In this document: positions 28,989-58,400 of the stretch, one piece after another | Numbering within the stretch: the first letter of the stretch is position 1 | How the letters are laid out: each line of letters starts with the position of its first letter | Assembly: GCA_016199675.1 (NCBI GenBank) | Contig: JACQGE010000126.1 | Coordinates: forward strand, 1,527 to 65,526 | Direction: 5' to 3' | DNA from: Acidobacteriota bacterium | Lineage (GTDB): Bacteria > Acidobacteriota > Terriglobia > 2-12-FULL-54-10 | DNA length: 64,000 bases | Translations under genes and position numbers: made by a program | Notes under the pieces: generated by a model | Seen by the model: the letters and a program-made list of their open reading frames with translations, nothing else | Told to the model about the DNA's origin: nothing | The model's database searches: none

Positions 28989-29564
28989 ATGATCAAAGCC
29001 GTCATTAACGTGGACTCGCCTCCGCCGCATGTATTCAATGTGCTGACGGATTTCTCGCGCTACAAGGAATGGATCCCCGGATGCCAACAGTGCACCGTGA
29101 CTTCCCGCAGCGGCAACGTTACGGACGCCGATATCATCATCAGCAGCATGAAGAGGATCGAACTGGCGCTGCGCTTCGAAGCCATTCCTCCCAATGTTCT
29201 GAATTTCAGGATGACGCGGGGCAAAGATATCAAAGCCTATTCCGGCACCTACCGTCTGATGAACGCGGCGGACGGGAACGGGACCGTGGTGATTGCTGAA
29301 CTGGAAATTGATGCCGGTTTCATGGTCCCGAAGTTCATGGTGGACAAGATCAGCAGAAAGATGATGGACGATACCGGAAGCGCCCTGCGGAAGCACATTG
29401 CCACCCTAACCATTCCCACGGCGATCGCTCGCGCGTCGGCTCAGAAAGCGCCCGAAGCGAAGCCACGTCGCGCCCGGCGGATTCTGCGGATCGTCAAGAT
29501 GCCTGCCGGATACAACGTTTGGCTTCTTGGCCAAACCTTTACAATAAAGAGCCAGGGAAGCTGA
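28989..29564 (+). CDS. SRPBCC-superfamily lipid-binding protein, tandem paralog
   Basis: ...VFNVLTDFSRYKEWIPGCQQCTV... follows the same fold signature as the preceding gene. Confidence 0.65.
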   Translation: MIKAVINVDSPPPHVFNVLTDFSRYKEWIPGCQQCTVTSRSGNVTDADIIISSMKRIELALRFEAIPPNVLNFRMTRGKDIKAYSGTYRLMNAADGNGTVVIAELEIDAGFMVPKFMVDKISRKMMDDTGSALRKHIATLTIPTAIARASAQKAPEAKPRRARRILRIVKMPAGYNVWLLGQTFTIKSQGS

Positions 29565-30582: not shown

Positions 30583-30586
30583 TTCC

Positions 30587-31618: not shown

Positions 31619-31777
31619 CCGGTAGCCGAAAATCCTTTGCCGTTAGTTTCCGCAGTTTGTGATTTCCCTCATCCAGAAATGATGGGAGCGGGTCGATTTT
31701 TAGCCGTCGCTATTGACACTTAATAATGCGGATGCTATCTTGTGTCCCTTGCGCGGAACCCAGAAAGCATCGACTTT

Positions 31778-33214: not shown

Positions 33215-33248
33215 TGAGCAGTGAAGAGCGAAAGCGGCGGAAGGTCTC

Positions 33249-42197: not shown

Positions 42198-43778
42198 TTA
42201 AGCTCTTACCGGAGAGACCGCCCGCTGGAAGGGTGGAATGACGGGCGCCGTGCCGTCCAGCACTCGTCCCCAGTAGATGCTTTTCCTCCGCGCCAGCATG
42301 TGGTTGATGTTTTGCTGCACGATATCTTGCACGTAACGGCTCAAATCCCTGACCAGTTTGTCGTTCTCAGCATCCTCCGGCTTCAATCCCGCCAGCGATA
42401 TTGGCTTCAGAATCCGCACATGCCACTTCGACGGATTTGGGACGACCGGAAGGAACGGGAAGGGAGGAGCAATGGGGAAATAGGGCCAGTCAAATTCTTT
42501 CGTTACATAACCCCAATGAATCCGGCCAATAATCGGAAATATCTCTGCGTGTCCAATCACAGCCGCAGGCACGATGGGCGACTGGTTCTCGATCGCCATC
42601 CGAGCAAACGCACTTTTAGAAAAATTGCGGAGCCGGTACGCAGATTTGTATGGCGTGAAGGTCCCTCGGATTCCTTCCGGGAAAGTGCCTACCAGATTTC
42701 CTCGGCGGAATAATAATTCCACGTTTCGCTGGGTAGCCACTACTCCACCCAATTTGGTCAAAAAGTTGCACAGAAACGGCATTTTCAGCAAGCCGGGGAT
42801 AATGATAAACCGGATGATTCGTCCTGTGTGCGTCAGGACCAGTGACAGGTGCATCACAGCGTCTAGTGGCATGAAACCGCGATGATTGCTGATGAACATG
42901 GCCGGGCCGGTGCGGGGAATATTTTCCATTCCCTCGAATTCGATTCGCCAATAGACTTTCCGGAGAAATGCAAACCACCAACCCCAGGCGCGAATGTAGT
43001 CCACGTCAAGACCCCATTCATCGTATGGCTTCCCGAGCAATTCCAGCCGAGCGCCGGGTTTGCTTCTCACAAATTCCGCAAGCGCCCCTATCGTCGTGAG
43101 CTCCGGCTTGAATCCCAACTCCCGCATCGCCCGGTCGCCAGAAACTGTCCAGTTATACTCCAGTTCCTCAATCGTCTCATTGCCGAAAGGAAAATGAAAC
43201 GCCTTCAACAGAGGTATGCGCATCGTTCCCGAAGCGCGAAGTGCCTTTTTAAGCGGAATCGTGCCTTCTCCGGCGGCATTGAAAACACCCGTTGCGTCCG
43301 ATTCCGCCGCTGCCACCAGGGCGCGCGCCGCATCCTTCAGGCTGATGAATTGGATACTGGGATCGCGACCGGCGAGCGATACCGCAGCTTTCCCGGCCAA
43401 TTGTCGTACGAGTAGGTCGCCTTCTTCAGTTGACAATACATTGGTTAGCCGCACCGCAGCCCAGTTTGAAAATCGGCAAGCAATTTGTTCGGCTCGTAGC
43501 CAGCGTTGCTCGGGCGCATTTTCAGGCAGCAGGGAGACCCGTTCCTCGGTCATCAAGCCGGGATTCTTTGCGTTAGAGCCATACGCGCAGGAATGACTTC
43601 GCAACACCAATCGTCGAAAGCCACCTCGCTCCACTAAAGCTTTGAGATTCTCCAATGATCCCGGTAGATAAATAATTCGGTCGGCGCCATCTTCTGATGC
43701 TAGATGCCCTCGGCGGGCAAGTTCCGCCCGCGTTGCCTGCGCCAGCGGACCCTCAAAACCCAGGACGGCGATCTTCAT
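42198..43778 (-). CDS. Fusion protein: an N-terminal NAD(P)-binding Rossmann-like (epimerase/reductase-like) domain and a C-terminal lysophospholipid (PlsC-type) acyltransferase
   Basis: The N-terminus MKIAVLGFEGPLA resembles a Rossmann start. The C-terminal half carries NHRGFMPLD (the HxxxxD acyltransferase motif) and FPEGIRG (the FPEG-TR motif). Confidence 0.75.
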   Translation of the reverse strand: MKIAVLGFEGPLAQATRAELARRGHLASEDGADRIIYLPGSLENLKALVERGGFRRLVLRSHSCAYGSNAKNPGLMTEERVSLLPENAPEQRWLRAEQIACRFSNWAAVRLTNVLSTEEGDLLVRQLAGKAAVSLAGRDPSIQFISLKDAARALVAAAESDATGVFNAAGEGTIPLKKALRASGTMRIPLLKAFHFPFGNETIEELEYNWTVSGDRAMRELGFKPELTTIGALAEFVRSKPGARLELLGKPYDEWGLDVDYIRAWGWWFAFLRKVYWRIEFEGMENIPRTGPAMFISNHRGFMPLDAVMHLSLVLTHTGRIIRFIIIPGLLKMPFLCNFLTKLGGVVATQRNVELLFRRGNLVGTFPEGIRGTFTPYKSAYRLRNFSKSAFARMAIENQSPIVPAAVIGHAEIFPIIGRIHWGYVTKEFDWPYFPIAPPFPFLPVVPNPSKWHVRILKPISLAGLKPEDAENDKLVRDLSRYVQDIVQQNINHMLARRKSIYWGRVLDGTAPVIPPFQRAVSPVRA

Positions 43779-44401
43779 GAATTCACGATTCCCCGCAAGA
43801 GAATGTCGGACATCTCGCGCACGACACGCTCTTCATCGAGGGGTTCTACCTGCTTGCCACCAAACAACTCCACGATGAGGAGAATGCCGGTCAACGCTGC
43901 CAGAAACAGAGCGGCGGCCGCCTCCACATCCACATCATCGCGCAATTCTCCTCGCCGTTTTCGGACATTCAGGAACTCGGTAAACAGTAACCGCCCCTGC
44001 AAAATGAACTTTCTGTAGAACAGGGCCCCGATCTCCGGATTCCGCATCGCCTCGCCCAGCAGATTGCCCAAAAAAGGAACCCGGTTCCGGTACTCCTGGA
44101 GCATGATCTTGGCAAGCACTTGGAGTTCATCTTGAAGCGTCTCGCTCGGAAAACGCAGTTCTGGAGAAGCCACCGCCCCGGCGATCAATTCCAATTCGCG
44201 TTCCAGCAGAGCCGCCAGGATGTTTTCTTTGGAGTGATAGTGTCGCACGATATCGAATGCGGTCACCCCGCAGGCATGCGTCAACTGCTCCAGAGTAATT
44301 TCGGAGGGACTGTGGCTGGACATCAACTGCATCGCTGTTTCCAACACAAGTCGCTGCTGTTCGGGAGTCAGTACGCCGGAACCCATGAACTCTACCTTCA
44401 C
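43775..44401 (-). CDS. TetR/AcrR-family transcriptional regulator
   Basis: The N-terminal HTH region is ...SEITLEQLTHACGVTAFDIVRHYHSKENIL... Its size is typical, and its stop overlaps the next gene. Confidence 0.7.
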   Translation of the reverse strand: MKVEFMGSGVLTPEQQRLVLETAMQLMSSHSPSEITLEQLTHACGVTAFDIVRHYHSKENILAALLERELELIAGAVASPELRFPSETLQDELQVLAKIMLQEYRNRVPFLGNLLGEAMRNPEIGALFYRKFILQGRLLFTEFLNVRKRRGELRDDVDVEAAAALFLAALTGILLIVELFGGKQVEPLDEERVVREMSDILLRGIVNS

Positions 44402-45948
44402 TGCCGCACTTCGGTTGGGGTTAGATGGGCCGCCGACCGAAAAGCGAAGTATTCGGACGCCAGGCGAGCCCCGTCTTCCTTCCCCGTCAAGATCATCTGT
44501 GCGACCCGCTGCGCCGAGATAATAACCGGTGTGATGCCGCCTCCCGGTTGCGTCCAGTGTCCCACCAAGTACAGGTTCTCAATAGGAGTCGCGTTCGGCA
44601 GCCGTGCCGAACCCAGTTGCCCCGGCGACATTTCCCAACCCAGCATTGCCCCCTGCCAGTTGTTGGTGAACTGGTACGATGTCATTGCCGAAGCGCTCAA
44701 TTTGACCACAATATGATCCTCAATTCCTGGCAGGATTTCGCGCAGGCGCTCCAGAATCCGGTTTTCTACTGCCTCCTTATGCGCCGCCCAGTCGGTGATT
44801 TCTTCCAAGCGCACCGGCGATAGTTTTTGGACAATCAAAATTTGGCAGCCGGATGGGGCCACGTCCGGATCGAAACGAGTTGGAATGAAGATTTTGAATA
44901 CATTGCGGATAGCATCTTCCGCCTCATAGGAACTCCAATAATACCCTTCCGCCTCCGCAAGTTTTTCTGGATCCATGCCCCGTAAGCCAATGTGTATCAG
45001 AAAACAAGGGTAACTGGGCCGTAGCGATTCCATGTAATCAATCAACCACCGTCCACAAGATTTCTCACCGATCAAGTCACGGTACGTGTGAATCGCATCA
45101 GCGTTGGAGACTACCACCGGGGCACGAAACACATATTCTTGCGACGGCCGCTTGGAGATTGTGCGGATTCGCACTCCTTGAACTTTTCCGCTTTCGATGA
45201 GAATATGCTCGGCTGATGCACATTTCAGAATCTTACCTCCGCGCAGTTCCAGTGCCTGGCCCAGATCGTTGGCGAATTTCTGGGAACTGCCGCGAGGATA
45301 GTAGTTTCCCAGGAAATAGGAGAGGCGGAGCATGGCGTCGAATAAATACGAAGTTTGGTTCGGCAAAGAACCCCAATGCGGCGTGTCCGCCATGAGGAGT
45401 GCCTTCAATCGCGGGTCGTGAAAGTGTTCATCTAGCTTATCCATCACTGTGTATTTCTCAAAGCGACGAGCGGGTTCGTTATCCACGCCCTTGAAATAAA
45501 ACAGCAAGCCATACAAATAGGCTTGCCGTAGTTCCGAAAAATATCGGTCAATCGCCGTTGCCTCCTCTGGAAACCATGCTTTCAGCTTCTCAAGATATTT
45601 TCCGAAATCGGCTGGAACCGAAAAAGGTGGCAAAGAAGGAAAATGGAACTGGTCAACAGGTTCCATCTTTATCCATTGCGTTTGAATCTTCAGTTGTTTC
45701 AATAACTTGCCTGTAAGTGTGGTTTCGTTTCCGAGCAAAGGATAGAAATGGGTTGCTGCGTCAAATATAAAACCTTTTCTGCGAAATGTAGAACAAAATC
45801 CGCCCAGCATATAATGCCGCTCGAGCAGCAAAACCTTCACTCCGTTCTGAGCCAGCAGATTAGCGCAAAAAAGTCCCCCGATGCCGCTGCCAATTATAAT
45901 AGCGTCAAATTGTTCCGGGTATTCCCGGCCAAAAATAGCATAGGCCAT
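44398..45948 (-). CDS. Phytoene-desaturase-family (CrtI/CrtD-like) FAD-dependent oxidoreductase
   Basis: FDAIIIGSGIGGLFCANLLAQNGVKVLLLER is a dinucleotide-binding motif in CrtI-like context. The protein is about 516 aa long. Confidence 0.75.
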   Translation of the reverse strand: MAYAIFGREYPEQFDAIIIGSGIGGLFCANLLAQNGVKVLLLERHYMLGGFCSTFRRKGFIFDAATHFYPLLGNETTLTGKLLKQLKIQTQWIKMEPVDQFHFPSLPPFSVPADFGKYLEKLKAWFPEEATAIDRYFSELRQAYLYGLLFYFKGVDNEPARRFEKYTVMDKLDEHFHDPRLKALLMADTPHWGSLPNQTSYLFDAMLRLSYFLGNYYPRGSSQKFANDLGQALELRGGKILKCASAEHILIESGKVQGVRIRTISKRPSQEYVFRAPVVVSNADAIHTYRDLIGEKSCGRWLIDYMESLRPSYPCFLIHIGLRGMDPEKLAEAEGYYWSSYEAEDAIRNVFKIFIPTRFDPDVAPSGCQILIVQKLSPVRLEEITDWAAHKEAVENRILERLREILPGIEDHIVVKLSASAMTSYQFTNNWQGAMLGWEMSPGQLGSARLPNATPIENLYLVGHWTQPGGGITPVIISAQRVAQMILTGKEDGARLASEYFAFRSAAHLTPTEVRQ

Positions 45949-45981
45949 TTCTACCGCCTTTTAGCGATCCCTTTAAATCCT

Positions 45982-46707
45982 TTAAGTTAATCCTCCATCA
46001 ATAACAAAGACTTGGCCTGTGATGTAGGTCGCATCCTGACTCGCCAAATATAACGCCAGTCGCGCTACCTGCTGGGCACAACCGGGGCGTCCAGAAGGTA
46101 TCTGCGCATATAACTTCCTGCGGGCCGATTCTTCCATTGAGATAGTCATATCTGTCTCGATAGCGCCAGGAACAATGGCATTCACCCGGACGCCCAGCCG
46201 CGCCACTTCTCTCGAGAGCGCTTTAGTAAACCCAATAATACCGGCTTTAGATGCGCTATAGTTGGTCTGTCCGGCGATGCCCATCATGCCGCTGACACTG
46301 GCTATGTTAAGAATCACTCCGCCCCGCCGAATCAAATCCGGGATTATAGATCGTGAATAATTAAAAGTGCCGGTGAGATTGGTTTCGATCACCTCCTGCC
46401 AGACAGCAGGATCCATATTGAGCAAAGCCCGGTCCCGCCGGATTCCAGCATTATTCACCAGTACCTCCACGGGGCCTAGCAATTCTTGTACTTGTTTCAC
46501 GACCTCTTGGGCCCGCTGGAAATCCCTCACATCCGCCTGATAGGCTACCGCCCGCGTTCCGTTTTCCATCAGGCTGGCGACCTGCGCTTCTGCCGACTCC
46601 CGGTTCTGCACATAAGTGAATGCGACTGCATGCCCGACGCGGCCAAATTCTTCCACGATTGCCCGGCCAATTCCTCGACTGCCGCCGGTAACCAGAACCG
46701 TACTCAT
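45982..46707 (-). CDS. fabG: 3-oxoacyl-ACP reductase (SDR family)
   Basis: TGGSRGIGRAI, NNAG, and S...YSASKAG (the YxxxK motif) are all present. Confidence 0.85.
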   Translation of the reverse strand: MSTVLVTGGSRGIGRAIVEEFGRVGHAVAFTYVQNRESAEAQVASLMENGTRAVAYQADVRDFQRAQEVVKQVQELLGPVEVLVNNAGIRRDRALLNMDPAVWQEVIETNLTGTFNYSRSIIPDLIRRGGVILNIASVSGMMGIAGQTNYSASKAGIIGFTKALSREVARLGVRVNAIVPGAIETDMTISMEESARRKLYAQIPSGRPGCAQQVARLALYLASQDATYITGQVFVIDGGLT

Positions 46708-47957
46708 TTCGGCCGGTTCCTTCCGTAATGCTCATGGGCTGCCACGAACTCTCTCGTAGCAATGGCGGCGGCCATGGAAACTTCGCCTCCTAAGACCGCC
46801 GCCGCTATGATTTCCGCAAGCTTCTTCACCTTTCCCGACCCGTAACATCCCATCATGCTAATGGCCTCTCGTTGGGTGGGCAGACCCGTGCCCCCGCCCA
46901 CAGTGGCCACGGAAAGGGCTGGTAGAGTAGCGCTGACAAACAGCCCTTCAGGGAGCAGTTCGAATGAGGTTACTCCACAAGCGGCGTTAACCACATTGGC
47001 CACGTCCTGTCCCGTCGCGATGAAGATGGCCGTAAGTCCATTGGCATAATGCCCGTTATAACCAATCGTACCCGCCTGCAGGTGACCAATCACGGTCGAT
47101 TGCCATACCCGGAACATCTGTTCCGCGGTTGCGTGCAGATACATCTTCAGCACGTCGTGCGGCAAGAGAGCGCCCGCCGTCACCCTCTTGCCTTTGCCGC
47201 GACTCATTAGGAATCCACTCGCTCTCTTTTCCGAACACATCCCGCTAAAAATCAGATAGCTGGAAATCCGATAGTTTGCCTGAACCCATCGGCAAACCGC
47301 GTCCGCTGCTTTCACGATCATGTTCATTCCTTGCGCGTCGCCGGTAGAAAAACCAAAATTCACCAGTACCTGCCGTCCCACTTGGTAGCATTTGAGACTC
47401 GTTAGCTTCCCGTGTTGGGTTGACCGCGCGGCCTCCGCCTGCATCTGCATAAGATGCTGCGGCGCCCATTCACTGAATTCCAAGGCGGAGGACACATCAT
47501 CAAAAAAGAAGGTCGGAGTAATCTGATTCTCGTCCTCCAGCAAAGCGGTCTGTACCCCGCCCCCCCTGGTCAGCGCTACCATCCCGCGCTCGTAACTGCG
47601 AATTAAAGCACCTTCAGTAGTAGCCATAGGGACATAAAAAAGACCGTTGGCATGCCGTCCGTGCACCAGAACAGGGCCGGCCACTCCCATCGGGACTTGG
47701 GCTACGCCGATCGGGTTCTCGATGTTGCCTCGCAACTCTTCCGTGTCGAAGGAACAATCACCGATATGGCGAAGAGAAACTTTCGTCTTTTCTTCCAACC
47801 AGCGGCGTCGTCGAGCCACTCGCTCGGCAGAGTATCCCTGGTTTTGAAGGCGTGGAAGAAGATCGGAAAGACCGAATTCTTTCAAGGCGGATTCCTCTTC
47901 CAGGACCCTTCCCATGGAGCTTTGTTCCTGACCCGTGAATTCTTCAGCCTTCTTCAT
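46704..47957 (-). CDS. HMG-CoA-reductase-family protein (four-electron thioester reductase fold) in a fatty-acid or polyketide context
   Basis: The HMGR signatures are present: ENPIGVAQVPMGVAGP (the ENxIG motif), TGDAQGMNM (DAMGMN) and ATVGGGTG (GTVGG). There are no mevalonate kinase or decarboxylase genes nearby. Confidence 0.8.
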   Translation of the reverse strand: MKKAEEFTGQEQSSMGRVLEEESALKEFGLSDLLPRLQNQGYSAERVARRRRWLEEKTKVSLRHIGDCSFDTEELRGNIENPIGVAQVPMGVAGPVLVHGRHANGLFYVPMATTEGALIRSYERGMVALTRGGGVQTALLEDENQITPTFFFDDVSSALEFSEWAPQHLMQMQAEAARSTQHGKLTSLKCYQVGRQVLVNFGFSTGDAQGMNMIVKAADAVCRWVQANYRISSYLIFSGMCSEKRASGFLMSRGKGKRVTAGALLPHDVLKMYLHATAEQMFRVWQSTVIGHLQAGTIGYNGHYANGLTAIFIATGQDVANVVNAACGVTSFELLPEGLFVSATLPALSVATVGGGTGLPTQREAISMMGCYGSGKVKKLAEIIAAAVLGGEVSMAAAIATREFVAAHEHYGRNRPK

Positions 47958-48005
47958 AATGGCTTTCCTTGAAAGCGACTCCGACCGGATTTCTTGTTCT
48001 CTTCC

Positions 48006-49259
48006 TTACTGCATCCAACGTCGCAACACCATAGACGTATTATTTCCATCACACCCGAAAGCCGTTACAAGAGCATATTCGCCGTCGAAGGGTTGTGGGT
48101 CTTTAGAAAGCAGAAGGCTCGTATCTCCGTCCATTAAACCAGCGGTCGGCGGTGTGGCTTGTCTTCGAAGCGCAATCCCCGCTACCAGGGCGCAGATTGC
48201 GCCGGAGGCCCCCATGGTTTCTCCCACAGCGGCCTTCGGGGCGCAAATGACAATCTTTCCAAGGCGATCCTGAAAAACATTCTGAAGCGCCCGAACTTCC
48301 ATTTCATCCCCGGTCCGGCTTCCGCTTGCTCCAGAAACAATACAGCCAATCTGCTCGGGGCCGATTCCGGCCGACGCCAGCGCCTCCTGGATGGATGCCG
48401 TTGCCCCTTCCGCGCGGACTCGGAAAGCGCTGACGCTCTGAGCATCATGAGCGCACCCAAAACCGCTAATTTCCATCCAAGGTTTTGCATGGCGCGCCGC
48501 AGCCGACTCTTCTCCTTCAAGCACTAACAAGGCAGAACCCTCTCCCAATATTGTTCCATCCCGATTCTTGCCGAAAGGGCGTAGAGAGCCGGAGGGCGAA
48601 ATGAGTCCCGATTTTCCGAACCCAAGGACAGACTCTTCGCAAAGCTCCTCCATGCCGCCAGCAAGCAAGATGCGCGCCCTCCCGAACCGCAAGAACTCTG
48701 CCCCGCAATGCAGCGCGTACAGGCCGGACGCCAGACCGGCGCAAACGGTCGAGTTGATGCCGCGCAGCTTGTACTTGATCGCTGCCTGCCCGGCTGGAGA
48801 ATTGATGACCGTATTGGGAAACTCCATGGGGTTCACATAGTTTGGCCCCTCCACTAATCCGCTCCAGTCAAACGAAGTGATGCTGTGGAGGCTGCCAAAC
48901 ATCGTACCGCAGATCATCCCTAAACCTGGATCGCCCTGGCCGGAATCATCCAGCCGCAGGTCGGATCCACAAAGAGCCTGATGTACGGCAACACAAAGCA
49001 GGCGGGCGCTGCGGTCGAGAACTCGGATCCCTTTATTGCCCAGCCATTGCTGGGGCGTAAAGTTCCGAATTTCGGCTGTAATTTCGTGCTCTCCGAATAA
49101 TTCACTGGGCTTCACACCCGAGGCACCGCTATAAAGTGACCCCTCAAATTCCTCTACCCCTACTCCCAGGCAAGAAATGACTCCCGCGCCGGTTATCACA
49201 ATCCGCTCATGCATGGATCTTGCCGCTCCGTCCTCTAGACCGCGTACCGCGCCAAGCAC
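48006..49259 (-). CDS. Ketosynthase-like protein (KS partner or CLF-like). It retains the active-site Cys position but lacks both catalytic His residues.
   Basis: STVCAGLASG aligns with PTACAAG of the neighbouring KS. The positions equivalent to HGTGT and GHTMGAAS read SGASGS and GETMGASG. Confidence 0.75.
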   Translation of the reverse strand: MLGAVRGLEDGAARSMHERIVITGAGVISCLGVGVEEFEGSLYSGASGVKPSELFGEHEITAEIRNFTPQQWLGNKGIRVLDRSARLLCVAVHQALCGSDLRLDDSGQGDPGLGMICGTMFGSLHSITSFDWSGLVEGPNYVNPMEFPNTVINSPAGQAAIKYKLRGINSTVCAGLASGLYALHCGAEFLRFGRARILLAGGMEELCEESVLGFGKSGLISPSGSLRPFGKNRDGTILGEGSALLVLEGEESAAARHAKPWMEISGFGCAHDAQSVSAFRVRAEGATASIQEALASAGIGPEQIGCIVSGASGSRTGDEMEVRALQNVFQDRLGKIVICAPKAAVGETMGASGAICALVAGIALRRQATPPTAGLMDGDTSLLLSKDPQPFDGEYALVTAFGCDGNNTSMVLRRWMQ

Positions 49260-50479
49260 AAAGAGGCGTTATTGCCTCCAAAAGCGTAAGCATTGTTGAG
49301 CACGACCCGCGGATGGGTTTCCCGTGCCTGATTGGGGACGTAATCCAGATCGCATTCCGGGTCCGGTTCTTCGTAGTTAATCGTCGGGGGAATCATTCCG
49401 GTGCGAAGCGCCAAGGCGCAGGCCACAGCTTCGATAGCGCTGGCTGCGCCCATAGTGTGGCCCAGCATGGATTTGATGGAACTCATGGGCACTTTCCCCG
49501 CACGGTTCCCGAACAGAGCCCGCACCGCAATGGATTCTGCCCGGTCATTGGTGGGTGTTCCCGTGCCGTGCGCGCTGATGTAATCAATGTCCTCGATGCC
49601 AACCTTGCTTTCGTCTATCGCCATGGCCATTGCCCGGACCGCGCCGTCACCTTGCGGATGCGCCGCCGTCATGTGATGGGAATCGCAACTCAGACCGTAG
49701 CCAAGCACTTCAGCGTACACCTGAGCCTCGCGTCGGACAGCCGCCTCCAGCGATTCCAGCACCAGGACGGCGGCTCCTTCTCCCGGAACCATGCCCTGCC
49801 GATTCTTATCAAACGGCTGGCAGCGCTCGCGGGCGATCGCCCCCAACCTGGCAAATCCCATGTACGGGATCCGTGAAAAAGCGTCCGCACCCCCCGCCAG
49901 CATCAAATCCGCACGTCCGGCGCGGATGAGATCGAATCCGTACCCAATGGCATAATTCCCGGCCGCACAGGCCGTCGGTATCATTAGGTTGGGCCCGCGG
50001 AGTTCAAACTCAATGGCAATGTTGCTAGGAATCACGTTGCAGGGATATTTGGGCAGCATTTCACCCGGAATGGCTTTCAAGCCGTCCGCTTTCCGAATGT
50101 TGTTATAGCGTTCCACGAAAAGCGGCTCCCCCGATGTCGTTCCCATGGAAACACCCACGCGGTGACGATCGTAGCGGGCCAGATTCGCTTCCGAGTCCTG
50201 GAGCGCCAGTAGCGCTGCGGCCACGGCAAGTTGTGATGCTCTTCCTAAATTTTCCGGGGTCTGGCGGTGGATATACTGTTCCGGCACAAAATCTCTAACT
50301 TCCGCGCCGATATGCACTGGAAAGGAGGAGGTGTCAAAGGAAGTAACAGGTCCGATGCCGGATTTTCCTGCCAGCAGTGCTTCCCAGAAATTTCTCCATC
50401 CCGAGCCAATGGGCGTGACCACTCCAAGACCTGTGATGACAACGCGTCTCATAAGGATCAATCGGAAAGACCTGCGCAA
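49235..50479 (-). CDS. Beta-ketoacyl-ACP synthase II-like ketosynthase
   Basis: PTACAAG (Cys), ISAHGTGTPTND (His) and SMLGHTMGAASA (His) are all present. It overlaps the downstream KS-like gene by 25 nt. Confidence 0.85.
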   Translation of the reverse strand: MRRSFRLILMRRVVITGLGVVTPIGSGWRNFWEALLAGKSGIGPVTSFDTSSFPVHIGAEVRDFVPEQYIHRQTPENLGRASQLAVAAALLALQDSEANLARYDRHRVGVSMGTTSGEPLFVERYNNIRKADGLKAIPGEMLPKYPCNVIPSNIAIEFELRGPNLMIPTACAAGNYAIGYGFDLIRAGRADLMLAGGADAFSRIPYMGFARLGAIARERCQPFDKNRQGMVPGEGAAVLVLESLEAAVRREAQVYAEVLGYGLSCDSHHMTAAHPQGDGAVRAMAMAIDESKVGIEDIDYISAHGTGTPTNDRAESIAVRALFGNRAGKVPMSSIKSMLGHTMGAASAIEAVACALALRTGMIPPTINYEEPDPECDLDYVPNQARETHPRVVLNNAYAFGGNNASLCLARYAV

Positions 50480-50490
50480 TGCTCTGGCAC

Positions 50491-50766
50491 TTACTGTGCT
50501 TTGGCCGCGCCGCCTAAATGCCGCTGCACAACCTCCACAGCGTCATACACGTTCCGGATCTTTCCGAACTCCTCTTCCGGAATTTCGATCTTGTATTTTT
50601 TGTCCACAGCGACCAGTATCTCGATCGCCATTAGAGAGTCAATGCCCAGCTCTTCGATGAAATCCGCCTTTTCAGAAACTTCCTGCGGTTCACGTTCCGT
50701 AATTTCGGCAACTAATTGTCTGACTGCATTGCGTATCTCTTCTGCTGTTACTTGTTGATTTGTCAT
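50491..50766 (-). CDS. Acyl carrier protein
   Basis: The protein is 91 aa with LGIDSLMAIE, the DSL phosphopantetheine attachment Ser. Confidence 0.85.
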   Translation of the reverse strand: MTNQQVTAEEIRNAVRQLVAEITEREPQEVSEKADFIEELGIDSLMAIEILVAVDKKYKIEIPEEEFGKIRNVYDAVEVVQRHLGGAAKAQ

Positions 50767-50842: not shown

Positions 50843-52549
50843 TTATTTGCGGGACGCCGTTGCCGCCGGTGCCTTTGTTTTCTCCGGTTCCCATCGGGAA
50901 ATGATTCCTTTGCCCTCTTCCACCGTAATGGACTGGCCGGCCGGAATGTTGGCGAGCTTGTGTTTGGCGCCGCTGGGCCATTCGATTTCCAAGGACCGGA
51001 CCGTTGAATCCGCTCCCAGGCCGAACGTAAGGGCCAAATCGCTCTGGGAAAGGTAACTCGACCCGCTGCGCAGCATCTGCCATTGTTTTCCCGAAGCGGA
51101 TTCCACGCGTACCACCGTACCGATTCCATTGCGATTGGACTTCGTGCCCACGGTCTTCACGGTGATCCAGTGGTTGCGATTGCCGCCATCATTGCGAAAC
51201 AAATAAGCCTGGCCGTTATTGGTGGTTGTCAGGATATCCAGGTCGCCATCCCGGTCGAAATCCCCATAGGCTGCGCCCCGCGCGACCTTCGGACGGCTGA
51301 ACGCCGCTCCCATGGCAGCCGTAACTTCTTCGAACCTGCCACGGCCGAGATTGCGGAATAGATGGGGTGGCTGTGCATACTTCACTTTCGGCTGCACTCG
51401 CTCAATCTCGTCTTCGATATGTCCGTTCGCGACAAAGATATCGAGAAAACCATCCAGATCGTAATCGAAGAAAAACACCGCAAAGGCGAGCGTCAAAAGA
51501 CTGGCGCGACCAACGGTGGAAGTCGGAGCTTCGTCCACGAACAGCCCCGTGCCTTCGTTGTGATACAGGCCGAGCATCTGATTCGAAAAGTTGCCGACGA
51601 CCAGAGAAGCTTTTCCGAAGCGGTCGTAATCAGCCGCATCCACTCCCATAGCGCCCCTCGCCACTCCATCCTCGCCGAAAGCCACGCCCGCTTCGATGCC
51701 GACTTCGGTGAAAGTCCCTTTTTGGTTGTTGCGATACAGTTTGTTGGGCTGCGTGTCATTCGCAACAAACAGGTCGGGCCATCCATCTCCGTCATAGTCA
51801 AATACGGCGACCCCCAGCGATTTACTGGTCGGGTCCCCCACTCCCGCCTTCTGGCTGGCATCCTCAAACTTGCCGCCACTCAGATTATGGTAGAGCTTCG
51901 AAGAGGTGCCTTTGTAAGACTCCGGAGTGCAATACGACTTGGTCGTCCCATCCAACGAGCACCACAAATCTCCCGGGAGGGTCCATTGCACGTAATTCGC
52001 CACGAATAGATCGAGGTTCCCATCACGATCATAGTCCAGCCAGGCGGCGCTGGTTCCGAAGGAAGCGTTCTGGATTCCGGATGTCTTCGTCACGTCCCGG
52101 AATTTGTAGCTTCCTTCGTTGTGGAAGAGATGATCGCCGTCGAGGGCTGTAATATAAACATCGTCCTTGCCGTCATTGTCGTAATCGCCGATGGCAACGC
52201 CCATGCCGTACATTTCAATATCCAGGCCGCTGCCGGCGGTTACGTCCGTGAACGTCCCATCGCGGTTGTTGCGGTACAAAGCCAGCAGCGACTTTCGGCC
52301 ACGGGGTTGCCAATCTTTGCCATTGATCAGGATGATGTCGAGCCAGCCGTTTCCGTCCGCGTCGAAAAATGCGGCGCCCGATCCCAGCGTCTCCGGTAAA
52401 TACTTTTTCCCCGAACGACCATTATTGTGAATAAACTTGATGCCAGCCGCAGTCGTGACATCCGAAAAAGTTACGCCCTGGGAATGGCCCGGAACGCTCA
52501 ACCATATCATGTAACTTGCCAGGGTTAATAGCAGCAGTCTTCTCCTCAT
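50843..52549 (-). CDS. CRTAC1-family protein (FG-GAP/VCBS repeats plus ASPIC/UnbV C-terminal domain), secreted
   Basis: A signal peptide is followed by repeated xDxDxDGxxD motifs (FDADGNGWLDI, GDYDNDGKDDV, FDYDGDGWPDL...). The C-terminal region SGSSYLSQSDLALTFGLG is the ASPIC/UnbV signature. Confidence 0.85.
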   Translation of the reverse strand: MRRRLLLLTLASYMIWLSVPGHSQGVTFSDVTTAAGIKFIHNNGRSGKKYLPETLGSGAAFFDADGNGWLDIILINGKDWQPRGRKSLLALYRNNRDGTFTDVTAGSGLDIEMYGMGVAIGDYDNDGKDDVYITALDGDHLFHNEGSYKFRDVTKTSGIQNASFGTSAAWLDYDRDGNLDLFVANYVQWTLPGDLWCSLDGTTKSYCTPESYKGTSSKLYHNLSGGKFEDASQKAGVGDPTSKSLGVAVFDYDGDGWPDLFVANDTQPNKLYRNNQKGTFTEVGIEAGVAFGEDGVARGAMGVDAADYDRFGKASLVVGNFSNQMLGLYHNEGTGLFVDEAPTSTVGRASLLTLAFAVFFFDYDLDGFLDIFVANGHIEDEIERVQPKVKYAQPPHLFRNLGRGRFEEVTAAMGAAFSRPKVARGAAYGDFDRDGDLDILTTTNNGQAYLFRNDGGNRNHWITVKTVGTKSNRNGIGTVVRVESASGKQWQMLRSGSSYLSQSDLALTFGLGADSTVRSLEIEWPSGAKHKLANIPAGQSITVEEGKGIISRWEPEKTKAPAATASRK

Positions 52550-55437
52550 GGTTCCCTCAAAGCAACAATGGCGCGGCCATTATCCTCGGTGCGATTCCTG
52601 GGTGTGGGATCGGTTCCGGCTTTCCTGGATCCTTCGGAAGCTCCCAATGGAACGCTCTCATGCTCGTGAATCTGCTGGCGCTCATTGTTGTCCTCCGGAC
52701 TCAACATGCGAGGCTTGGCGGTGATAGCCTGCGATGACTCTTCAGCCTTGAAGCGCAAAAAGAGTTGCTGCTCCCGAGCGGCATTTTCTTTGTCTTGTAG
52801 CCCCCGGTAGCACAACATCCTTGTGTAGTGCATCTGGAGGTCTTCCGGGTCGATCAGGCAGACGCGATCGAGGACCAGGAGCGCCTCGGCGTACTGGCGC
52901 TTGAGAAAGAGGATGCGGGCGATTTGATTGAGGACTACCCGGTCGCGCGGATAGCTTCGCTCCACCGTGCGAAGCGAAGCCAGAGCGCCATCGTAGTCGC
53001 CGTCAGCCTTTTGGATCAATGCCTTGAAATAGTGAATTCGTCCGAGGCTGGAATTAATCGCCAAAGCTTTCTCGATATGGGGCTTGGCCGCCTCCGTCTC
53101 GCCTTCCTGAATCAGCGCCCGCGCCGCATTCAGCCAGCCGTCGGCATAGTCTGGTTGCGCTTCAGTAACCCGTTTGAACGCATACTCCGCGCCTTTCAAA
53201 TCGCCTTGCAGGAGTAAACCGATCCCCCAATCATTCCATCGCTCTCGGTCCGTCTCCTGAACGACCGGGTTCCAAACGGGCTCGGTTTTTTTATCGCCCA
53301 GGGGGAGCGTGACCTCATCCTCTGCGAGAGTTATGATCGGTAAATTCGGAATCTCGCCTTTGATCTGCCCCGAAACATTCTGGGGAATATTCGATGGATC
53401 AAAGGAATATTCCAGGCTGTTGTGACTGGCGCTTAGCAGCGATGGGTCCTGATTGGACTTCGGCTGGCCAGCGTAAGCCCAGTGCGTGTAGTAATGGGAA
53501 AACTTGCGGTAATTAAGTTTGGCGGTCAAGGTAATCGGCCCCTTCGCATCGTCGGGGATATGGACGCGATAATGAGCCAGATCCGCCGCACCCGGAGGAA
53601 TCAGCCGTACATAAAGGAGACTGCGGGCTTGCCAGGCATTGCGCTTATTGACCATGTTTCCTTCGCCGTCGAGCAGGTAAGAACGATAAAAATGGGCTCC
53701 CCGCTCTACGGGCCCTTGACCATCGCCTTCCACCATACCGCTCCAGAATATGATCCTGCCGGTCGAATCTTTTCCTTGTAATTCTAGCCACACATCAAAA
53801 GCATCTACGGTCCCTCCCGGGAAAAAATGCCCGATCTTACGGGTTCGCACGACCACGTCTACACGGGTGGTCGAACCGGGTTTCAATTGCAAGCCTGCTT
53901 TGTCAAGCGGCGCTGACAGCTTCCCCACCTCCCGAATAATGCCGGTCACAGGCTGCTCGGCTTCCTCCCCGACCGCAAAACTGGACATCGCTTGCAGATT
54001 ATCTCCTGTCCGCCGCACCATCGGAGTGCCCTCTGACGGAACTTCTGCCGGACTGGCGGCAAAAATGTCAACCGTGATAAATCCAGACTTCAGGAAGTCT
54101 TCCTGAACCTTCAGTTGCTCTTTATCCTGATTAACAAACGCCACGGCCGTATTAGCCCCCGGGAAGCGATGCGAATGCACCATGCCGTTCTGATTGCCGG
54201 GATCCTTCGAAGGCACCAACGGCATGTGACAGTCCGCGCAGTGGCTGCTCTTCTCTGGATAATAGAATGACCTCGCCCCTTCCCAGGACACCCCGCTGGC
54301 CTGCCAGGCATCGTATTCGTTGAAACCACGGAACCAGCGATACTGGTTTACCGGAACATCCAGGTGGACTTTGTGGCACGAGGAACAGAATTCAGCAGTG
54401 TCCTCACGCATGAAGGGCTTCATGAAGGACTTCCGGTGGGGAGCGGGATTGAGATAGGTCAAAAAGTGGTCGAGCGATTTCATGAACTTATTTTTGCTGG
54501 TGGCCAATTCATGGAGCGGCGGATACTGGATGAGGAAACCACCGTTTCCCATCGAGCTGTCGACGTGAATGATTGCATGGCACGAGGTGCAGGCCAGGCC
54601 GGCGTGCGCTTCCGGCGTATCAATCTGCTCCTGGATCGGCCGGTCGAATCGGCCATTGAAGAATACGGCATGGTCGTGGCACCCCGCGCACCATTTGCTC
54701 GGCTGTGTTCCGACCACGTCCTGCATATACTCCACCGACTTCCGATAAAACTGGTTATTAAAAGAAGCGAAGTGGTGAGCCGAACTGTTCCATTGCTGAT
54801 AGATGTCTTTATGGCATTCCCCGCACGTCGCGGAATCCATGAAGAAATTGGAAGGGATGATCCCGTTCCGGTCGGTGTTCGCCGAGGATGGGAAAAAAGG
54901 AGAATTCGGCCCGGCTCCTTCGCCATCCATCGAAGTCGGCACGACCAGCGGATTTCGTATGGAATCCATCGGATTCGGAAAGAGCTTGCGGTACACCGCC
55001 GTGGAGGAAGGCAACAAAACGAGCAGCGCCACGGCAGCCATAAGAGTTTGCCGGAACCGCAGCCATTCCCCGCTGTGGCGGGCCGCCTGCTTCCAAACAT
55101 AAGGAACCAGCGCAGCAATTCCAAGTGCTGCGGCCACAATGTGCGCACGGAGCGCCCAGCGGTGGTCCATTGTATTCCCCCACCCAGCCAGAAAGATTCC
55201 GCAACCCAAAGCGACTATGAACAAGATTGTGGCGGCGGGAATTCCCCGGCGTAATTGCAGGTCGCGTTTCAGCAAAAACGCCAGCGCGACCGCAAGGGCC
55301 AAGCCCAATCCCAGGTGGAACAAGACATTGACCATGTAGAAGATAGTCGCTGAGGAAAATGCCGACACATAGGCGGTGTTGATCAACAGTATTATGAAAA
55401 AGATTCCCGTCCATTTTGCAAGGTTCTTCATAGTCAC
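52546..55437 (-). CDS. Membrane-anchored pentahaem c-type cytochrome with a C-terminal TPR region
   Basis: There are about 4 N-terminal TM helices. Five CxxCH motifs are present: CGECH, CAGCH, CTSCH, CSSCH and CADCH. The C-terminal 230 aa are TPR-like (…AEYAFKRVTEAQPDYADGWLNAARALI…). Confidence 0.8.
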   Translation of the reverse strand: MTMKNLAKWTGIFFIILLINTAYVSAFSSATIFYMVNVLFHLGLGLALAVALAFLLKRDLQLRRGIPAATILFIVALGCGIFLAGWGNTMDHRWALRAHIVAAALGIAALVPYVWKQAARHSGEWLRFRQTLMAAVALLVLLPSSTAVYRKLFPNPMDSIRNPLVVPTSMDGEGAGPNSPFFPSSANTDRNGIIPSNFFMDSATCGECHKDIYQQWNSSAHHFASFNNQFYRKSVEYMQDVVGTQPSKWCAGCHDHAVFFNGRFDRPIQEQIDTPEAHAGLACTSCHAIIHVDSSMGNGGFLIQYPPLHELATSKNKFMKSLDHFLTYLNPAPHRKSFMKPFMREDTAEFCSSCHKVHLDVPVNQYRWFRGFNEYDAWQASGVSWEGARSFYYPEKSSHCADCHMPLVPSKDPGNQNGMVHSHRFPGANTAVAFVNQDKEQLKVQEDFLKSGFITVDIFAASPAEVPSEGTPMVRRTGDNLQAMSSFAVGEEAEQPVTGIIREVGKLSAPLDKAGLQLKPGSTTRVDVVVRTRKIGHFFPGGTVDAFDVWLELQGKDSTGRIIFWSGMVEGDGQGPVERGAHFYRSYLLDGEGNMVNKRNAWQARSLLYVRLIPPGAADLAHYRVHIPDDAKGPITLTAKLNYRKFSHYYTHWAYAGQPKSNQDPSLLSASHNSLEYSFDPSNIPQNVSGQIKGEIPNLPIITLAEDEVTLPLGDKKTEPVWNPVVQETDRERWNDWGIGLLLQGDLKGAEYAFKRVTEAQPDYADGWLNAARALIQEGETEAAKPHIEKALAINSSLGRIHYFKALIQKADGDYDGALASLRTVERSYPRDRVVLNQIARILFLKRQYAEALLVLDRVCLIDPEDLQMHYTRMLCYRGLQDKENAAREQQLFLRFKAEESSQAITAKPRMLSPEDNNERQQIHEHESVPLGASEGSRKAGTDPTPRNRTEDNGRAIVALREP

Positions 55438-58400
55438 CTGACTTTCGACAATAACTCCGGCAACGGGTGCAGCAGGCGCAACGCTGGCCGAGTGTTGTAT
55501 TGCTCTCGATATAGCTGGTGTGCGTCATCGTCCGGGAAATGTTCTGTTGCGGGATAGGGATAGGCGCTCATGCCATGAAAGGGTAAAGGTTCCACTGACT
55601 GCGCAAAGGCCGTGTTGGCGTCTTGGTCCTTGGCCCAGCCATCCACAAGCAGCAGGAAATCCCGCTGCCAACCTCGCGGAAGTGGGGGAAGACTCATAGC
55701 AGAGAATCGCAACTGCATCTCGTCGCCGGAACCCATGATGACCAAATGATCGTCTACGGAAGCTAGCAAAGGGTTGACCCCCCCGTACCGCGTGTAATTG
55801 CCGGGAGTGGGGTTCCACATGCTGAAGGGCATCCAATCCGCATAAAGAAAAGATTCCGGCTGTTTGCGCTGGGGATGAATAATGGGCTTGGAAAATCCTC
55901 GGAAACGCAAGTCCGCGACTGCAAGTTCCAGGTCGGTCAAAACCACGGGAGGGGGCGCGGTCTCTTCGCCCAGAAAGATTTCATCCCAATAGAGACAGAG
56001 GTCGGTGACAATACGAATTTCGCGCGAAGCAGAAAGAAACTTGTCCGTTAGGTCCACCACGATTGTCTTCGGCTTTCCGGCGGGGATGCCCATATCCTCG
56101 ATGACCGTTTGCCAGCGACCCTGCGCGTCCTTGACTTGCAAGTACGGCATAACAAGCCCTTCCTTGCGCTCCTGGGACACAGCCCGGTAGGTGCTACCGT
56201 CCGCCCAATCGAGCCATCCACTCAGAACGAGTACGGCCCGGTTCTGCGGCGCGGCGCTTCCAAAATCCAGGTCCAAGTGATGTAATTCTGCGACACCGGC
56301 GTAATCACGCTGGAACCCGTCCGGGTACCGGTGGTCGCGCTGCAAGAGTTGTGGCAAAACATTGCTTCCTCGATCATCGTTTGCAGCTATGGGGTAGATT
56401 CGGCGCCGAACCCCAAACAAGCGAAACTCAGGGAACGGGGGAGCTTTGAACTTTTCATTTGTAAATATCGCCACATCTGCTGGATGATCCACCGCGATCA
56501 AGCGAATGGCGTCAATGTAAGATACTTCACGAAGTTCTTCGGTAATCCGAATTTCATAGTGTCCATTTTCCAGAGCCAACACGCTGCCCGGAATCTGGAT
56601 GTATTCGTCATGGTCCACCGGGAAATATTGTCCATCACCTGAACTGGCTCCCAAGGGAGCCACTCCCAGAACATCGGTAATGAAATCGAATTTTTTGCCG
56701 TCCCAAGTGAAGATCATCGGGCAGGAGCCGGAAAGCCGCTGGGCTTCCTTATAGGTCAGAGATTTGCCGACGGTCTGTTTCATTTCATTTTGCACTAGAC
56801 CATTCGGCCAAGTAATTCGTACCGTATCGACTTCTACGTGAGCTTGCAATCCGAATGTAAGGGGTGTCCCATTATAGGTCTGCTTTTGATACAACGATCC
56901 GGCTTTGACTTCTACTCTGGCCCCCGGCGCCAATTTCAGGTTTTTGATCCCCTCCAGTCCTATCTCCACCCAGGAGTTTCGCGTGTTGGTTTGATTCTTT
57001 AACCGACGCACGGTTCCATCTGAATTGATTGCCATTAGGTCGGTCTGGCCGTCGCCATCAAAGTCCGATGCTACCATCGCGACTGCGGGCACACCGGAAG
57101 TAACAGCCTTGCCTTCCTGGAATCGGCCGAGTCCCTGATTGCGGAAGACTAACTCTCCGGCCATTACCTCTATTAATCCACGGTTTTCAAAATCCGCCAA
57201 TGCAGGAGGACCTTTGGCGGATGCAGGAAACGCAGCCCCTTCCAATTTACCCTTCCCATTATTGATCAGGAGCGATATGCCGGAAGATTTGCTGGCGACA
57301 AGATCTGTCCATCCATCATTGTTAAGGTCGCGAGCCAGCAGAGATTGTGTGGCCGGCGGGAGAGCTTCCAATGGTTCCGCCTCGTATTTTCCCAACAAAT
57401 GATCTCGATAAACCACACCACTGCCATCCTGGTATGCGACTACAAGATCCATGCCGTTTCCCAAAGCATCCAAATCGGTTACAACACCGCCCGAAGCACG
57501 CCTCTTCACAAAGGGAAACGTCGCAGTCTCATCGCTGAATCCACCATTACCGTTATTGCGCATCAGGATGGAGTTTTGGCCGAGCAGAAACAGATCCAGG
57601 TCGTAGTCGTGATCGAAATCAAGCCAGATAGGCTGGGCAAACGTTCCGCCCGGCAAGGAAACTGAGGACTTCTGGAAAACCCCATTCTGATTTGCGTAAA
57701 GCGAGGCTCCGGATTCCGTAAGCACTGCAAGGTCCGGCCAACCGTCGTTGTTGAAGTCACCAGGCGCAACCGACAGAACCTCCTTCAAATCGTTGAGCCC
57801 GGCATCCTGTACCAGGACCGAGCCGTTTTTGAAAATCCGGACTCCCGTAGCAGACCAGACAATCACATCTGGACGCCTGTCGCCATCGTAATCAAGCAGC
57901 GCCAGGCCGGCGTTCTTCACATCGAAGTTCGCCGCGATTTGTTGTTCGTCGAATTTGAGCTCGTTCACAGTTATCTCTCGGTCTGGAACAGGCGAAGGCT
58001 CGATAGGATCGTATATTTCAGCGTAGGCGCTCCAATCGAGGTCTTCCGGGATGACGGCTCCCGCTTGCAGTTTCTTAATCTCCTGGAAAATCTGTAACTC
58101 CCGATCCGCGTCGGCCGCACGGCCAGCCGCGCGATAGGCGTTATAAAGTTGGAAGTGTGGGCCAGCAAGATTCGGGTCCAACTTAGCAGCTGTCTCGAAA
58201 GCCTGGAGCGACTGGTCAACGTTCCCTTCCAGTTTGTACAGATAACCCAGGTTGTAATACGAAACCGCATCGTTGGTCACAAGCTTCACCATTTGCTCGA
58301 ACTGTTGGAGGGCGCGACCGTATTCCGATTCCTTCTTGAAGGCAATCCCCAAGTTGAACCACGTATGAGGAATGCTGGGGTCCTGTTGCTGCACCTTCAC

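Follow-up and report, generated by a model that had tools for sequence, protein, structure and literature searches.

A cluster of eight genes on the minus strand of a 64,000-nucleotide stretch of DNA from an uncultured member of the Acidobacteriota (hereafter the window; assembly GCA_016199675.1, contig JACQGE010000126.1, forward-strand positions 1,527 to 65,526) is probably an operon whose product is a specialised lipid with a fatty alcohol at its centre. The cluster, at positions 42198-50766, encodes an acyl carrier protein (ACP), a ketosynthase (KS; the protein KSa), a KS-like partner (KSb), a protein of the HMG-CoA reductase (HMGR) family, a FabG-type reductase, a CrtI-like flavoprotein, a TetR-family regulator and a two-domain acyltransferase protein (Table 1). 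Sequence comparisons indicate that the "HMGR" is not a mevalonate enzyme and is better described as a predicted HMGR-derived thioester reductase; they support an NADPH-dependent four-electron reduction of acyl-ACP to a fatty alcohol as its predicted reaction. The components of the cluster are of kinds described in 2025-2026, and their combination was not found described in the literature searched.

The first-pass annotation of this DNA had reported eight co-oriented genes of these families, and the open reading frame (ORF) list together with Pfam and NCBIfam assignments bears this out at the same coordinates. Beginning with the acyltransferase gene and ending with the ACP gene, neighbouring genes are spaced by -4, -4, 33, -4, 48, -25 and 11 nt, so that the reported maximum of 34 nt holds for six of the seven junctions but not for the 48-nt gap between the HMGR-like and KS-like genes. 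When the 41-53 kb region was scanned for promoter and terminator consensus sites, these were no more frequent than in shuffled sequence, and they did not delimit a transcription unit.

Among solved structures, the HMGR-like protein comes closest to a class-I HMGR, that from Methanothermococcus thermolithotrophicus (6hr7; 287 bits). The catalytic residues E115, K244, D318 and H408, as well as N306, are kept, and the first four (equivalent to Glu559, Lys691, Asp767 and His866) are conserved in the window protein and 120 close homologues. An alignment with 6hr7 and family representatives was used to read the residues of the HMG pocket, which are replaced, from human HMGR to the window protein, as follows: R590 by I146, S684 by F237, K735 by S287 or a gap, and L862 by F404. 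Thus, Lys735, Ser684 and Arg590, by which a canonical HMGR is recognized, are all replaced, and the protein scores 309 against the TIGR00533 model, below its cut-off of 442.

A precedent for such a protein is available. Grossi et al. (2025, ISME J; PMC11948995) demonstrated that a large bacterial and haloarchaeal clade of "class-I HMGRs" consists of fatty acyl-CoA reductases, named FcrA, which are NADPH-dependent, yield fatty alcohols, do not reduce HMG-CoA and are insensitive to statins. These enzymes retain the catalytic residues of HMGR, differ from it at S684, K735 and L862, and in the characterised cases reduce acyl-CoA of C14 and longer to the alcohol with NADPH (PMC11948995). By the residue criteria of that study, the window protein has the FcrA-type pocket, with a residue other than Ser at position 684, a small or absent residue at 735 and a bulky one at 862. 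The two share the fold, the catalytic Glu/Lys/Asp/His set, the altered pocket and the predicted four-electron chemistry. In contrast to FcrA, the window protein has also lost R590, has neither a Lad domain nor a WS/DGAT or FadD partner, and is encoded inside a KS/chain-length-factor/ACP operon. A PlsC-like gene adjacent to the reductase gene, as in the window, was noted for Coxiella in the same study, which also described ACP-fused forms of FcrA and proposed that some FcrAs feed ether-lipid synthesis (PMC11948995). The thioester reductase role that the first-pass annotation had proposed for the HMGR-type enzyme has thus gained an experimental precedent, a lost HMG pocket and a clade that adjoins ACP genes in its favour. 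Of the two release modes considered there, a two-electron reduction to an aldehyde or a four-electron reduction to an alcohol, the FcrA chemistry agrees with the alcohol and not with the aldehyde.

We further searched the family over 1.8 billion representatives and built a neighbour-joining tree without bootstrap, in which Pb-FcrA and the N. pharaonis sequences are not included. The tree consists of three groups: canonical HMGRs, a clade retaining R590, and its sister clade, in which this residue is Ile, Val or Leu. The acidobacterial proteins fall into the sister clade, and both non-canonical clades lie apart from canonical HMGR in this unbootstrapped tree. Genes of the R590-retaining clade, which is of the characterised FcrA type and includes a Promineifilaceae sequence (locus L068), adjoin WS/DGAT and FadD genes. 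Loss of R590 was considered as a hallmark of FcrA and rejected, as the WS/DGAT-linked FcrAs keep this residue; it marks the sister clade only.

Genomic context within the sister clade bears on the carrier of the substrate. In its members outside Acidobacteria (L085-L091), which belong to unrelated lineages, the HMGR-like gene nearly always directly follows an ACP gene, as in L086, L089, L090 and L091, and the module reads as a KS or AMP-ligase gene, then ACP, HMGR-like and a seven-transmembrane (7TM)-GAF sensor with a histidine kinase or HD domain. This arrangement suggests a reduced-lipid product coupled to signalling; no description of it was found in the FcrA paper. The recurrent adjacency to ACP genes is the main argument, suggestive and short of proof, for a thioester bound to a carrier as the substrate of the window enzyme, and the position of its gene inside a KS/chain-length-factor/ACP operon likewise makes acyl-ACP the probable substrate. 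ACP rather than CoA would then be the carrier used by the reductase. The contexts of L085-L091 correspond to proteins P0126, P0125, P0138, P0153 and P0122. Fusions of the HMGR-like domain occur in P0123, P0125, P0126, P0130, P0131, P0134, P0145 and P0142, the partners being receiver, 4HBT hotdog, one or two PilZ (cyclic di-GMP-binding) and AMP-binding plus PP-binding domains; the PilZ, receiver and hotdog fusions are those of sister-clade members outside Acidobacteria. The adenylation-carrier-reductase fusion is P0142, a related protein whose residue at the R590 position is Lys and which the neighbour-joining tree places among the R590-type sequences.

The ketosynthase pair connects the cluster to Cluster I of the ladderane-producing anammox bacteria. 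KSa, whose Cys-His-His triad is conserved in all orthologues, matches chain B of PDB entry 9s5h with 523 bits (phmmer) and 55% identity (BLASTP), well ahead of the next-best solved relatives Iga11 (6kxd, 362 bits) and FabF (~335 bits). The best PDB match of KSb is chain C of the same entry (233 bits, 35% identity), and both proteins are reciprocal best matches with their respective chains (490-523 bits for KSa and 9s5h_B; 233-241 bits for KSb and 9s5h_C). Entries 9s5h and 9s5i contain two different KS chains, of which chain C has Val, Asn and Glu at the triad positions; 9s5i also holds an ACP. A recent preprint reported the amxFabF2/amxFabFmut heterodimer of Brocadia fulgida, with and without amxACP, as the KS/chain-length-factor pair of ladderane Cluster I, and described the amxFabFmut triad as Val/Asn/Glu (10.64898/2026.05.19.726425). 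The preprint prints no PDB codes; from the chain composition and the triad, 9s5h is most likely this heterodimer. KSa and KSb therefore most likely form a KS/chain-length-factor heterodimer as judged by homology, with amxFabF2 and amxFabFmut as the nearest solved relatives. For the window ACP, the best PDB matches include amxACP (7auf, 53 bits), which ranks first, and 9s5i_E, with a small margin over ordinary ACPs.

The first-pass annotation had called KSb a His-less KS partner. Both histidines are indeed gone (His to Ser and His to Glu), and the catalytic Cys is lost as well, being replaced by Leu. Among the acidobacterial orthologues, the Cys position is variable, the first His is replaced by Ser or Ala, and the change of the second His to Glu is invariant. 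Across the whole KSb set, the catalytic Cys position is occupied by Leu, Phe, Ile, Asn, Glu, Val or Ser and never by Gln. The Cys of a VCAG motif in KSb was considered as a possible catalytic residue and rejected, since the alignment puts this unconserved residue three positions upstream of the catalytic column.

Anammox Cluster I (KustE3603-3608) comprises amxACP, amxFabZ, amxFabF2, amxFabFmut, a phytoene-dehydrogenase homologue and a B12 radical-SAM protein, and its heterodimer decarboxylates malonyl-ACP, only in the heterodimeric state and with a preference for C6-C8 probes (10.64898/2026.05.19.726425). The window cluster shares with it the ACP, the active KS, the triad-less partner with the same His-to-Glu replacement and a CrtI-family flavoprotein. 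It lacks FabZ and the cobalamin radical-SAM protein, neither of which is encoded within 42198-50766 or, among relatives with annotation, in L001 and L082; it adds the HMGR-type reductase, FabG, TetR and the acyltransferase; and it resides in the Acidobacteriota, which are not known as ladderane makers. The absence of FabZ and of the B12 radical-SAM protein excludes ladderane itself as the product. The first-pass annotation, however, had set the ladderane template aside altogether, and this does not hold, as the KS, its partner, the CrtI-like protein and, marginally, the ACP have their nearest characterised relatives in this very cluster. Its proposal that a KS and its partner build the chain iteratively on a dedicated ACP, followed by ketoreduction, fits the anammox KS/chain-length-factor precedent.

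The highly reducing type II polyketide synthases such as that of ishigamide (Iga11/Iga12) and the aryl-polyene and flexirubin systems share with the window a KS/chain-length-factor heterodimer, an ACP and a ketoreductase, whereas the window cluster lacks a dehydratase pair, a thioesterase and genes for aryl starters or export, and HMGR-type reductive release is foreign to those systems. The chain-length factor lacks the active-site Gln, and Pfam found no dehydratase, thioesterase, radical-SAM or ammonia-lyase gene in the cluster, which confirms the absences listed by the first-pass annotation and does not agree with an aromatic type II polyketide or an aryl polyene. WS/DGAT (wax synthase) and AGPS genes are likewise missing from it. 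Aryl-polyene clusters, too, carry a PlsC/LPLAT-type acyltransferase. As had been concluded earlier, the cluster still cannot be assigned to a characterised pathway.

The flavoprotein was compared with truncated sequences, comprising the first 400 residues of each protein, that Javidpour et al. 2016 (PMC4790861) provide as supplementary data. It is 30% identical to Kuste3607 (179 bits), 27% to Kuste3336 (139 bits) and 21% to Pantoea CrtI (82 bits), and the two anammox proteins fail to complement CrtI (PMC4790861). Its greater similarity to Kuste3607 than to CrtI points to a phytoene-dehydrogenase-like enzyme of the fatty-acid-cluster type and not to a carotenoid desaturase. At this level of identity, membership in the Kuste3607 subfamily is plausible, and the protein may desaturate or saturate the chain. 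Its gene belongs to the core that is kept across the acidobacterial loci.

The acyltransferase protein combines an extended short-chain dehydrogenase/reductase (SDR), or epimerase, fold in residues 1 to ~245 with a PlsC/LPLAT-type acyltransferase domain in residues ~270-500. In the AlphaFold2 model of the 526-aa protein (pLDDT 82.6, pTM 0.80), the top Foldseek matches of the first domain are UDP-sugar 4-epimerases and related extended SDRs (E ~1e-10). An alignment of 26-28 homologues contains an invariant W93xxxE97 where extended SDRs have YxxxK, an invariant H299-R-G-x-x-P-x-D306 with HX6D instead of the usual HX4D spacing, and the motifs FPEGI(R/H/Q)G and PI(I/V)P. The "Rossmann" half described in the first-pass annotation is thus real, but with the catalytic Tyr and Lys replaced by Trp and Glu it is most likely no reductase, and the reductase part of the proposed reductase-acyltransferase fusion falls away. 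Some homologues of the protein have a weak precomputed match to PF03982 (DAGAT). The acceptor of the acyltransferase may be a glycerolipid, as the first-pass annotation had suggested; that role, like desaturation or oxidation by the CrtI-type enzyme, stays at the level of a prediction.

A similar set of functions is known from Myxococcus, where both ether-lipid loci (elbA-E, in which ElbD has the domains FAR-ACS-ACP-AGPAT, and MXAN_1676-1674) bring together a fatty-acyl reductase with an ACP, a PlsC-like acyltransferase and proteins of the NAD-epimerase/dehydratase family (ElbA/ElbE, MXAN_1674), and where ElbE is required for ether-lipid formation. Judged by family and fold, the window cluster would share this set of reductase, carrier protein, PlsC-like acyltransferase and epimerase-family domain. 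Unlike in the elb loci, its reductase is of the HMGR type and not FAR/NAD_binding_4, the chain comes from a KS/chain-length-factor pair and not from an adenylating ACS domain, there is no AMP-binding loading domain, and the epimerase-like module, which has no Tyr/Lys pair, forms one protein with the acyltransferase. AGPS is also missing.

Conservation argues that these genes belong together. The complete order ACP/KS/KS-like/HMGR-like/SDR/CrtI-like/(TetR)/acyltransferase was also found in L001 (a 598-kb contig) and L082/L083 (a 7.2-Mb contig), L002 keeps its genes in the same order, and the core of KS, KS-like, HMGR-like and CrtI-like genes, mostly with the acyltransferase, is present in whole or in part in L002, L006, L007, L009, L012, L013, L014 and L018. 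The core-bearing loci come from several acidobacterial classes and include Holophagales, Thermoanaerobaculia, Pyrinomonadaceae, gp6 and "Multivoradales", and the synteny is kept in more than ten independent loci, including the Bryobacterales type, to which the closest relatives belong. These assignments are based on tblastn and precomputed gene calls, as our own ORF caller produced spurious antisense ORFs on the GC-rich loci. The arrangement is far beyond chance, and the cluster is a genuine unit of old standing in the phylum. The closest homologues of the HMGR-like protein (71-82% identity) come from metagenome-assembled genomes (MAGs) of Bryobacteraceae and Bryobacterales, and among the matches listed, with one genome per species, all those above 52% identity are from Acidobacteriota except one Zixibacteria MAG. 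Peripheral genes are more variable: FabG, which marks the Bryobacterales-type loci and L004, was seen in L001, L003, L004, L005 and L082 and TetR in L001-L004, whereas in acidobacterial loci further removed from the window both were missing. In the Bryobacterales-type loci the TetR gene lies between the CrtI-like and acyltransferase genes, whereas L013 has an ECF-type sigma factor and a zf-HC2 anti-sigma factor between the HMGR-like and CrtI-like genes (11231-12525); different regulators have thus been recruited into the cluster.

Taken as a pathway, the cluster would probably work as follows. The heterodimer of KSa and the catalytically dead KSb would start and extend an acyl chain on the cluster ACP, and the cluster FabG would reduce the 3-keto group. 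Dehydration and enoyl reduction would be borrowed from the housekeeping fatty acid synthase or be carried out in part by the flavoprotein, which is also predicted to alter the saturation of the chain. The HMGR-derived enzyme with NADPH would then reduce the acyl thioester, most likely still on the ACP, by four electrons to a primary alcohol, releasing the chain. Finally, the PlsC-type domain, guided by the non-catalytic epimerase-fold domain, would carry out the acyl transfer by which the alcohol-derived unit enters a glycerolipid. The likeliest products would be a 1-O-alkyl (ether) glycerolipid, formed by a route analogous to that of myxobacterial ElbD/ElbE, or an ester of the alcohol; chain length and final product are matters of prediction here. 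Our preferred product is a glycerolipid derived from the fatty alcohol, possibly an alkyl ether lipid; its chief competitor is a wax-like ester, and we rank the candidates as alkyl-glycerol (ether) lipid, wax-like ester, unsaturated chain of the anammox-module type, signalling lipid (low) and a housekeeping HMGR role (very low).

Several points weigh against this reconstruction. The characterised FcrA takes acyl-CoA and not acyl-ACP (PMC11948995), and the putative reductase role draws its precedent from FcrA and none from its own sub-clade. A fully saturated long chain needs enzymes from outside, since the cluster has neither a dehydratase nor an enoyl reductase. Neither AGPS nor another known ether-forming enzyme was found among the window ORFs scanned, motif I of the acyltransferase is atypical (HX6D), and the likeness to ElbD/ElbE stands as an analogy of function. 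An alkyl-glycerol product does not explain the RPE65-like and halogenase-like genes that neighbour the cluster in many relatives. Finally, all close homologues among the matches listed are from uncultured genomes or MAGs and none from a cultured strain, and therefore no lipid profile can be paired with the cluster.

The strongest of the competing explanations, although unlikely, is that the cluster makes a neutral storage lipid, its PlsC/DGAT2-related acyltransferase esterifying the fatty alcohol to a wax-type ester in place of WS/DGAT. FcrA homologues at ~45% identity do adjoin WS/DGAT and FadD in Solirubrobacterales, Burkholderiales, Woeseiaceae and others, the acidobacterial loci have no WS/DGAT of their own, and the weak DAGAT matches mentioned above, together with a patatin/cNMP lipase, an ABC1 kinase and SRPBCC lipid-binding proteins in the neighbourhood, would suit such a product. 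However, the usual acceptors of the PlsC family are of the glycerol-phosphate type, and ordinary wax esters would make the KS/chain-length-factor/ACP system and the CrtI-like flavoprotein superfluous. Acidobacteria are also not known for wax esters.

Slightly less credible still is an unsaturated or polyene-type chain made by an acidobacterial cousin of anammox Cluster I, in which the KS/chain-length-factor/ACP system and the flavoprotein would give a short or desaturated acyl-ACP; this would next undergo reduction and anchoring and, in many relatives, further processing by an adjacent C=C-cleaving oxygenase. The identities of KSa and KSb to the likely amxFabF2 and amxFabFmut, the relation of the flavoprotein to Kuste3607 and the C6-C8 preference of the anammox heterodimer all speak for it, as does the recurrence, in differing positions, of RPE65 (lignostilbene/carotenoid-oxygenase) family genes beside the cluster. 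An RPE65-family gene lies just after the acyltransferase gene in L002 (region 14932-18119), L005, L007, L012, L013 and L014 and just before the ACP gene in L082 (1097-2533); five of these loci, L013 and L082 being the exceptions, also have a flavin halogenase/monooxygenase-like gene beside it. In the window, however, neither an RPE65-family nor a halogenase-like gene was found; the identity to Kuste3607 is just 30%, the missing FabZ and B12 radical-SAM enzymes exclude ladderane, and the anammox module offers no known function to borrow.

It is very unlikely that the cluster makes a diffusible or regulatory lipid, for instance a signal in the form of a fatty alcohol or aldehyde, in place of a structural one. 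The reductase clade outside Acidobacteria is fused to PilZ and receiver domains or followed by 7TM-GAF sensor kinases or phosphodiesterases, and the acidobacterial clusters have embedded regulators (TetR or ECF sigma/anti-sigma), but the acidobacterial clade has no such fusions and sensors and carries an acyltransferase instead, which points to incorporation into a larger lipid. The remotest explanation, that of a housekeeping HMG-CoA reductase for isoprenoids lying beside fatty-acid genes by accident, accounts for the strong PF00368 and TIGR00533 matches and for the database annotation as HMG-CoA reductase, but hardly for the lost HMG carboxylate-binding residues, the TIGR00533 score below the cut-off, the conserved linkage to the KS/chain-length-factor and CrtI-like genes, the lack of mevalonate-pathway genes among the window ORFs scanned, or the missing mevalonate pathway in bacteria that have FcrA-type homologues and no canonical HMGR (PMC11948995).

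The preferred fatty-alcohol-derived glycerolipid would be of interest for acidobacterial ether lipids in particular. In the study of Sahonero-Canavesi et al. (PMC13159169), Ger turned up in every group of ether-lipid producers apart from Acidobacteria, and Halamka et al. (PMC10087280) reported that Solibacter usitatus has no ElbD; these two gaps are the reason why an ether-lipid function would matter. Tentatively, and with the odds rather against it, the cluster may be the oxygen-tolerant ether-lipid route of Acidobacteria that lack ElbD and Ger: the HMGR-derived acyl-ACP reductase would give the alcohol, the pseudo-SDR/PlsC protein and the flavoprotein would assemble an alkyl-glycerol ether lipid, presumed to provide the building blocks of the brGDGT lipids (tetraethers of the branched glycerol dialkyl glycerol type) used as palaeothermometers, and the KS/chain-length-factor/ACP/flavoprotein module would be older and more general than ladderane synthesis. 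The link between the cluster and the acidobacterial ether lipids is circumstantial; the cluster offers a concrete candidate gene set for ether-lipid synthesis in aerobic Acidobacteria. If the proposed reductase function is true, HMGR-derived reductases extend from acyl-CoA and wax esters to carrier-bound chains, which would be a new release mode for a type II synthase. Furthermore, a KS/chain-length-factor/ACP/flavoprotein set regarded as belonging to a cluster that only ladderane producers have is clearly related to genes of common soil Acidobacteria, which changes the reading of this module and opens a comparative route to its function.

Table 1. Genes of the lipid cluster and of two possibly associated regions of the window
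Feature	Position	Strand	Remarks
ACP	50491-50766	-	91 aa, DSL serine present; PF00550 51 bits; dedicated carrier protein
KSa, active ketosynthase, amxFabF2-like	49235-50479	-	PF00109, PF02801; Cys-His-His triad intact
KSb, KS-like, chain-length-factor-like, catalytically dead partner	48006-49259	-	PF00109, PF02801; triad lost
HMGR-like, predicted thioester reductase of the FcrA superfamily	46704-47957	-	PF00368, 370 bits
FabG-type 3-ketoacyl-ACP reductase (SDR)	45982-46707	-	TIGR01830 277 bits, PF13561 205 bits; S-Y-K triad intact
CrtI/phytoene-dehydrogenase-family FAD enzyme	44398-45948	-	TIGR02734 179 bits, cut-off 238
TetR-family regulator, embedded in the operon	43775-44401	-	PF00440, PF14246, PF16859
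Two-domain acyltransferase protein, 526 aa	42198-43778	-	PF01553 52.6 bits at residues 278-407
Possibly associated block: ABC1/UbiB-type kinase, ABC1-related 507-aa protein, two SRPBCC lipid-binding proteins	24236-29564	+	
Patatin lipase with cNMP-binding domain	19231-21030	-	L001 counterpart directly precedes ACP

Pfam scanning of the window ORFs, from which those at 55434-64000 and some shorter ones were left out, found no mevalonate-pathway, AGPS, WS/DGAT or radical-SAM genes. Two further regions of the window have counterparts next to the cluster elsewhere (Table 1). The block of ABC1, ABC1-related and SRPBCC genes directly follows the acyltransferase gene in L001, and ABC1 genes occur after the acyltransferase in L003, L004, L008 and L013; inside the window block, two tblastn matches of ~110 aa to a 133-aa ORF of L001 were found at ~25960-26750. 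In the window, the ABC1 block and the patatin gene lie 13-23 kb from the cluster (the ABC1 block at ~13 kb and on the opposite strand), which suggests a local rearrangement. Between this block and the cluster, the plus strand encodes in a row (29635-34826) a pair of ArsA/Get3-like ATPases, a FadL-type outer-membrane channel for long-chain fatty acids and a GMC oxidoreductase, a further group with a lipid theme.

Minor differences between the loci were also observed. The window HMGR-like ORF is ~17-20 residues longer at the N-terminus than most of its homologues. In L001, a 91-aa ORF with no Pfam match lies between the genes of the KS partner and the HMGR-like protein (9726-10001), and it has no counterpart ORF in the window. 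In L082/L083 (1-381; 4128-5142), a DDE transposase gene precedes the cluster and a DUF772 transposase fragment follows it, and ~1 kb between the KS and its partner is free of gene calls, possibly reflecting a mobile-element insertion or a missed gene. Directly upstream of the window ACP gene and on the same strand, large FG-GAP/ASPIC (UnbV) and TPR/cytochrome-c554-like genes occupy positions 50843-58676, and similar genes lie upstream of the cluster in L001, L002, L007, L013 and L014.

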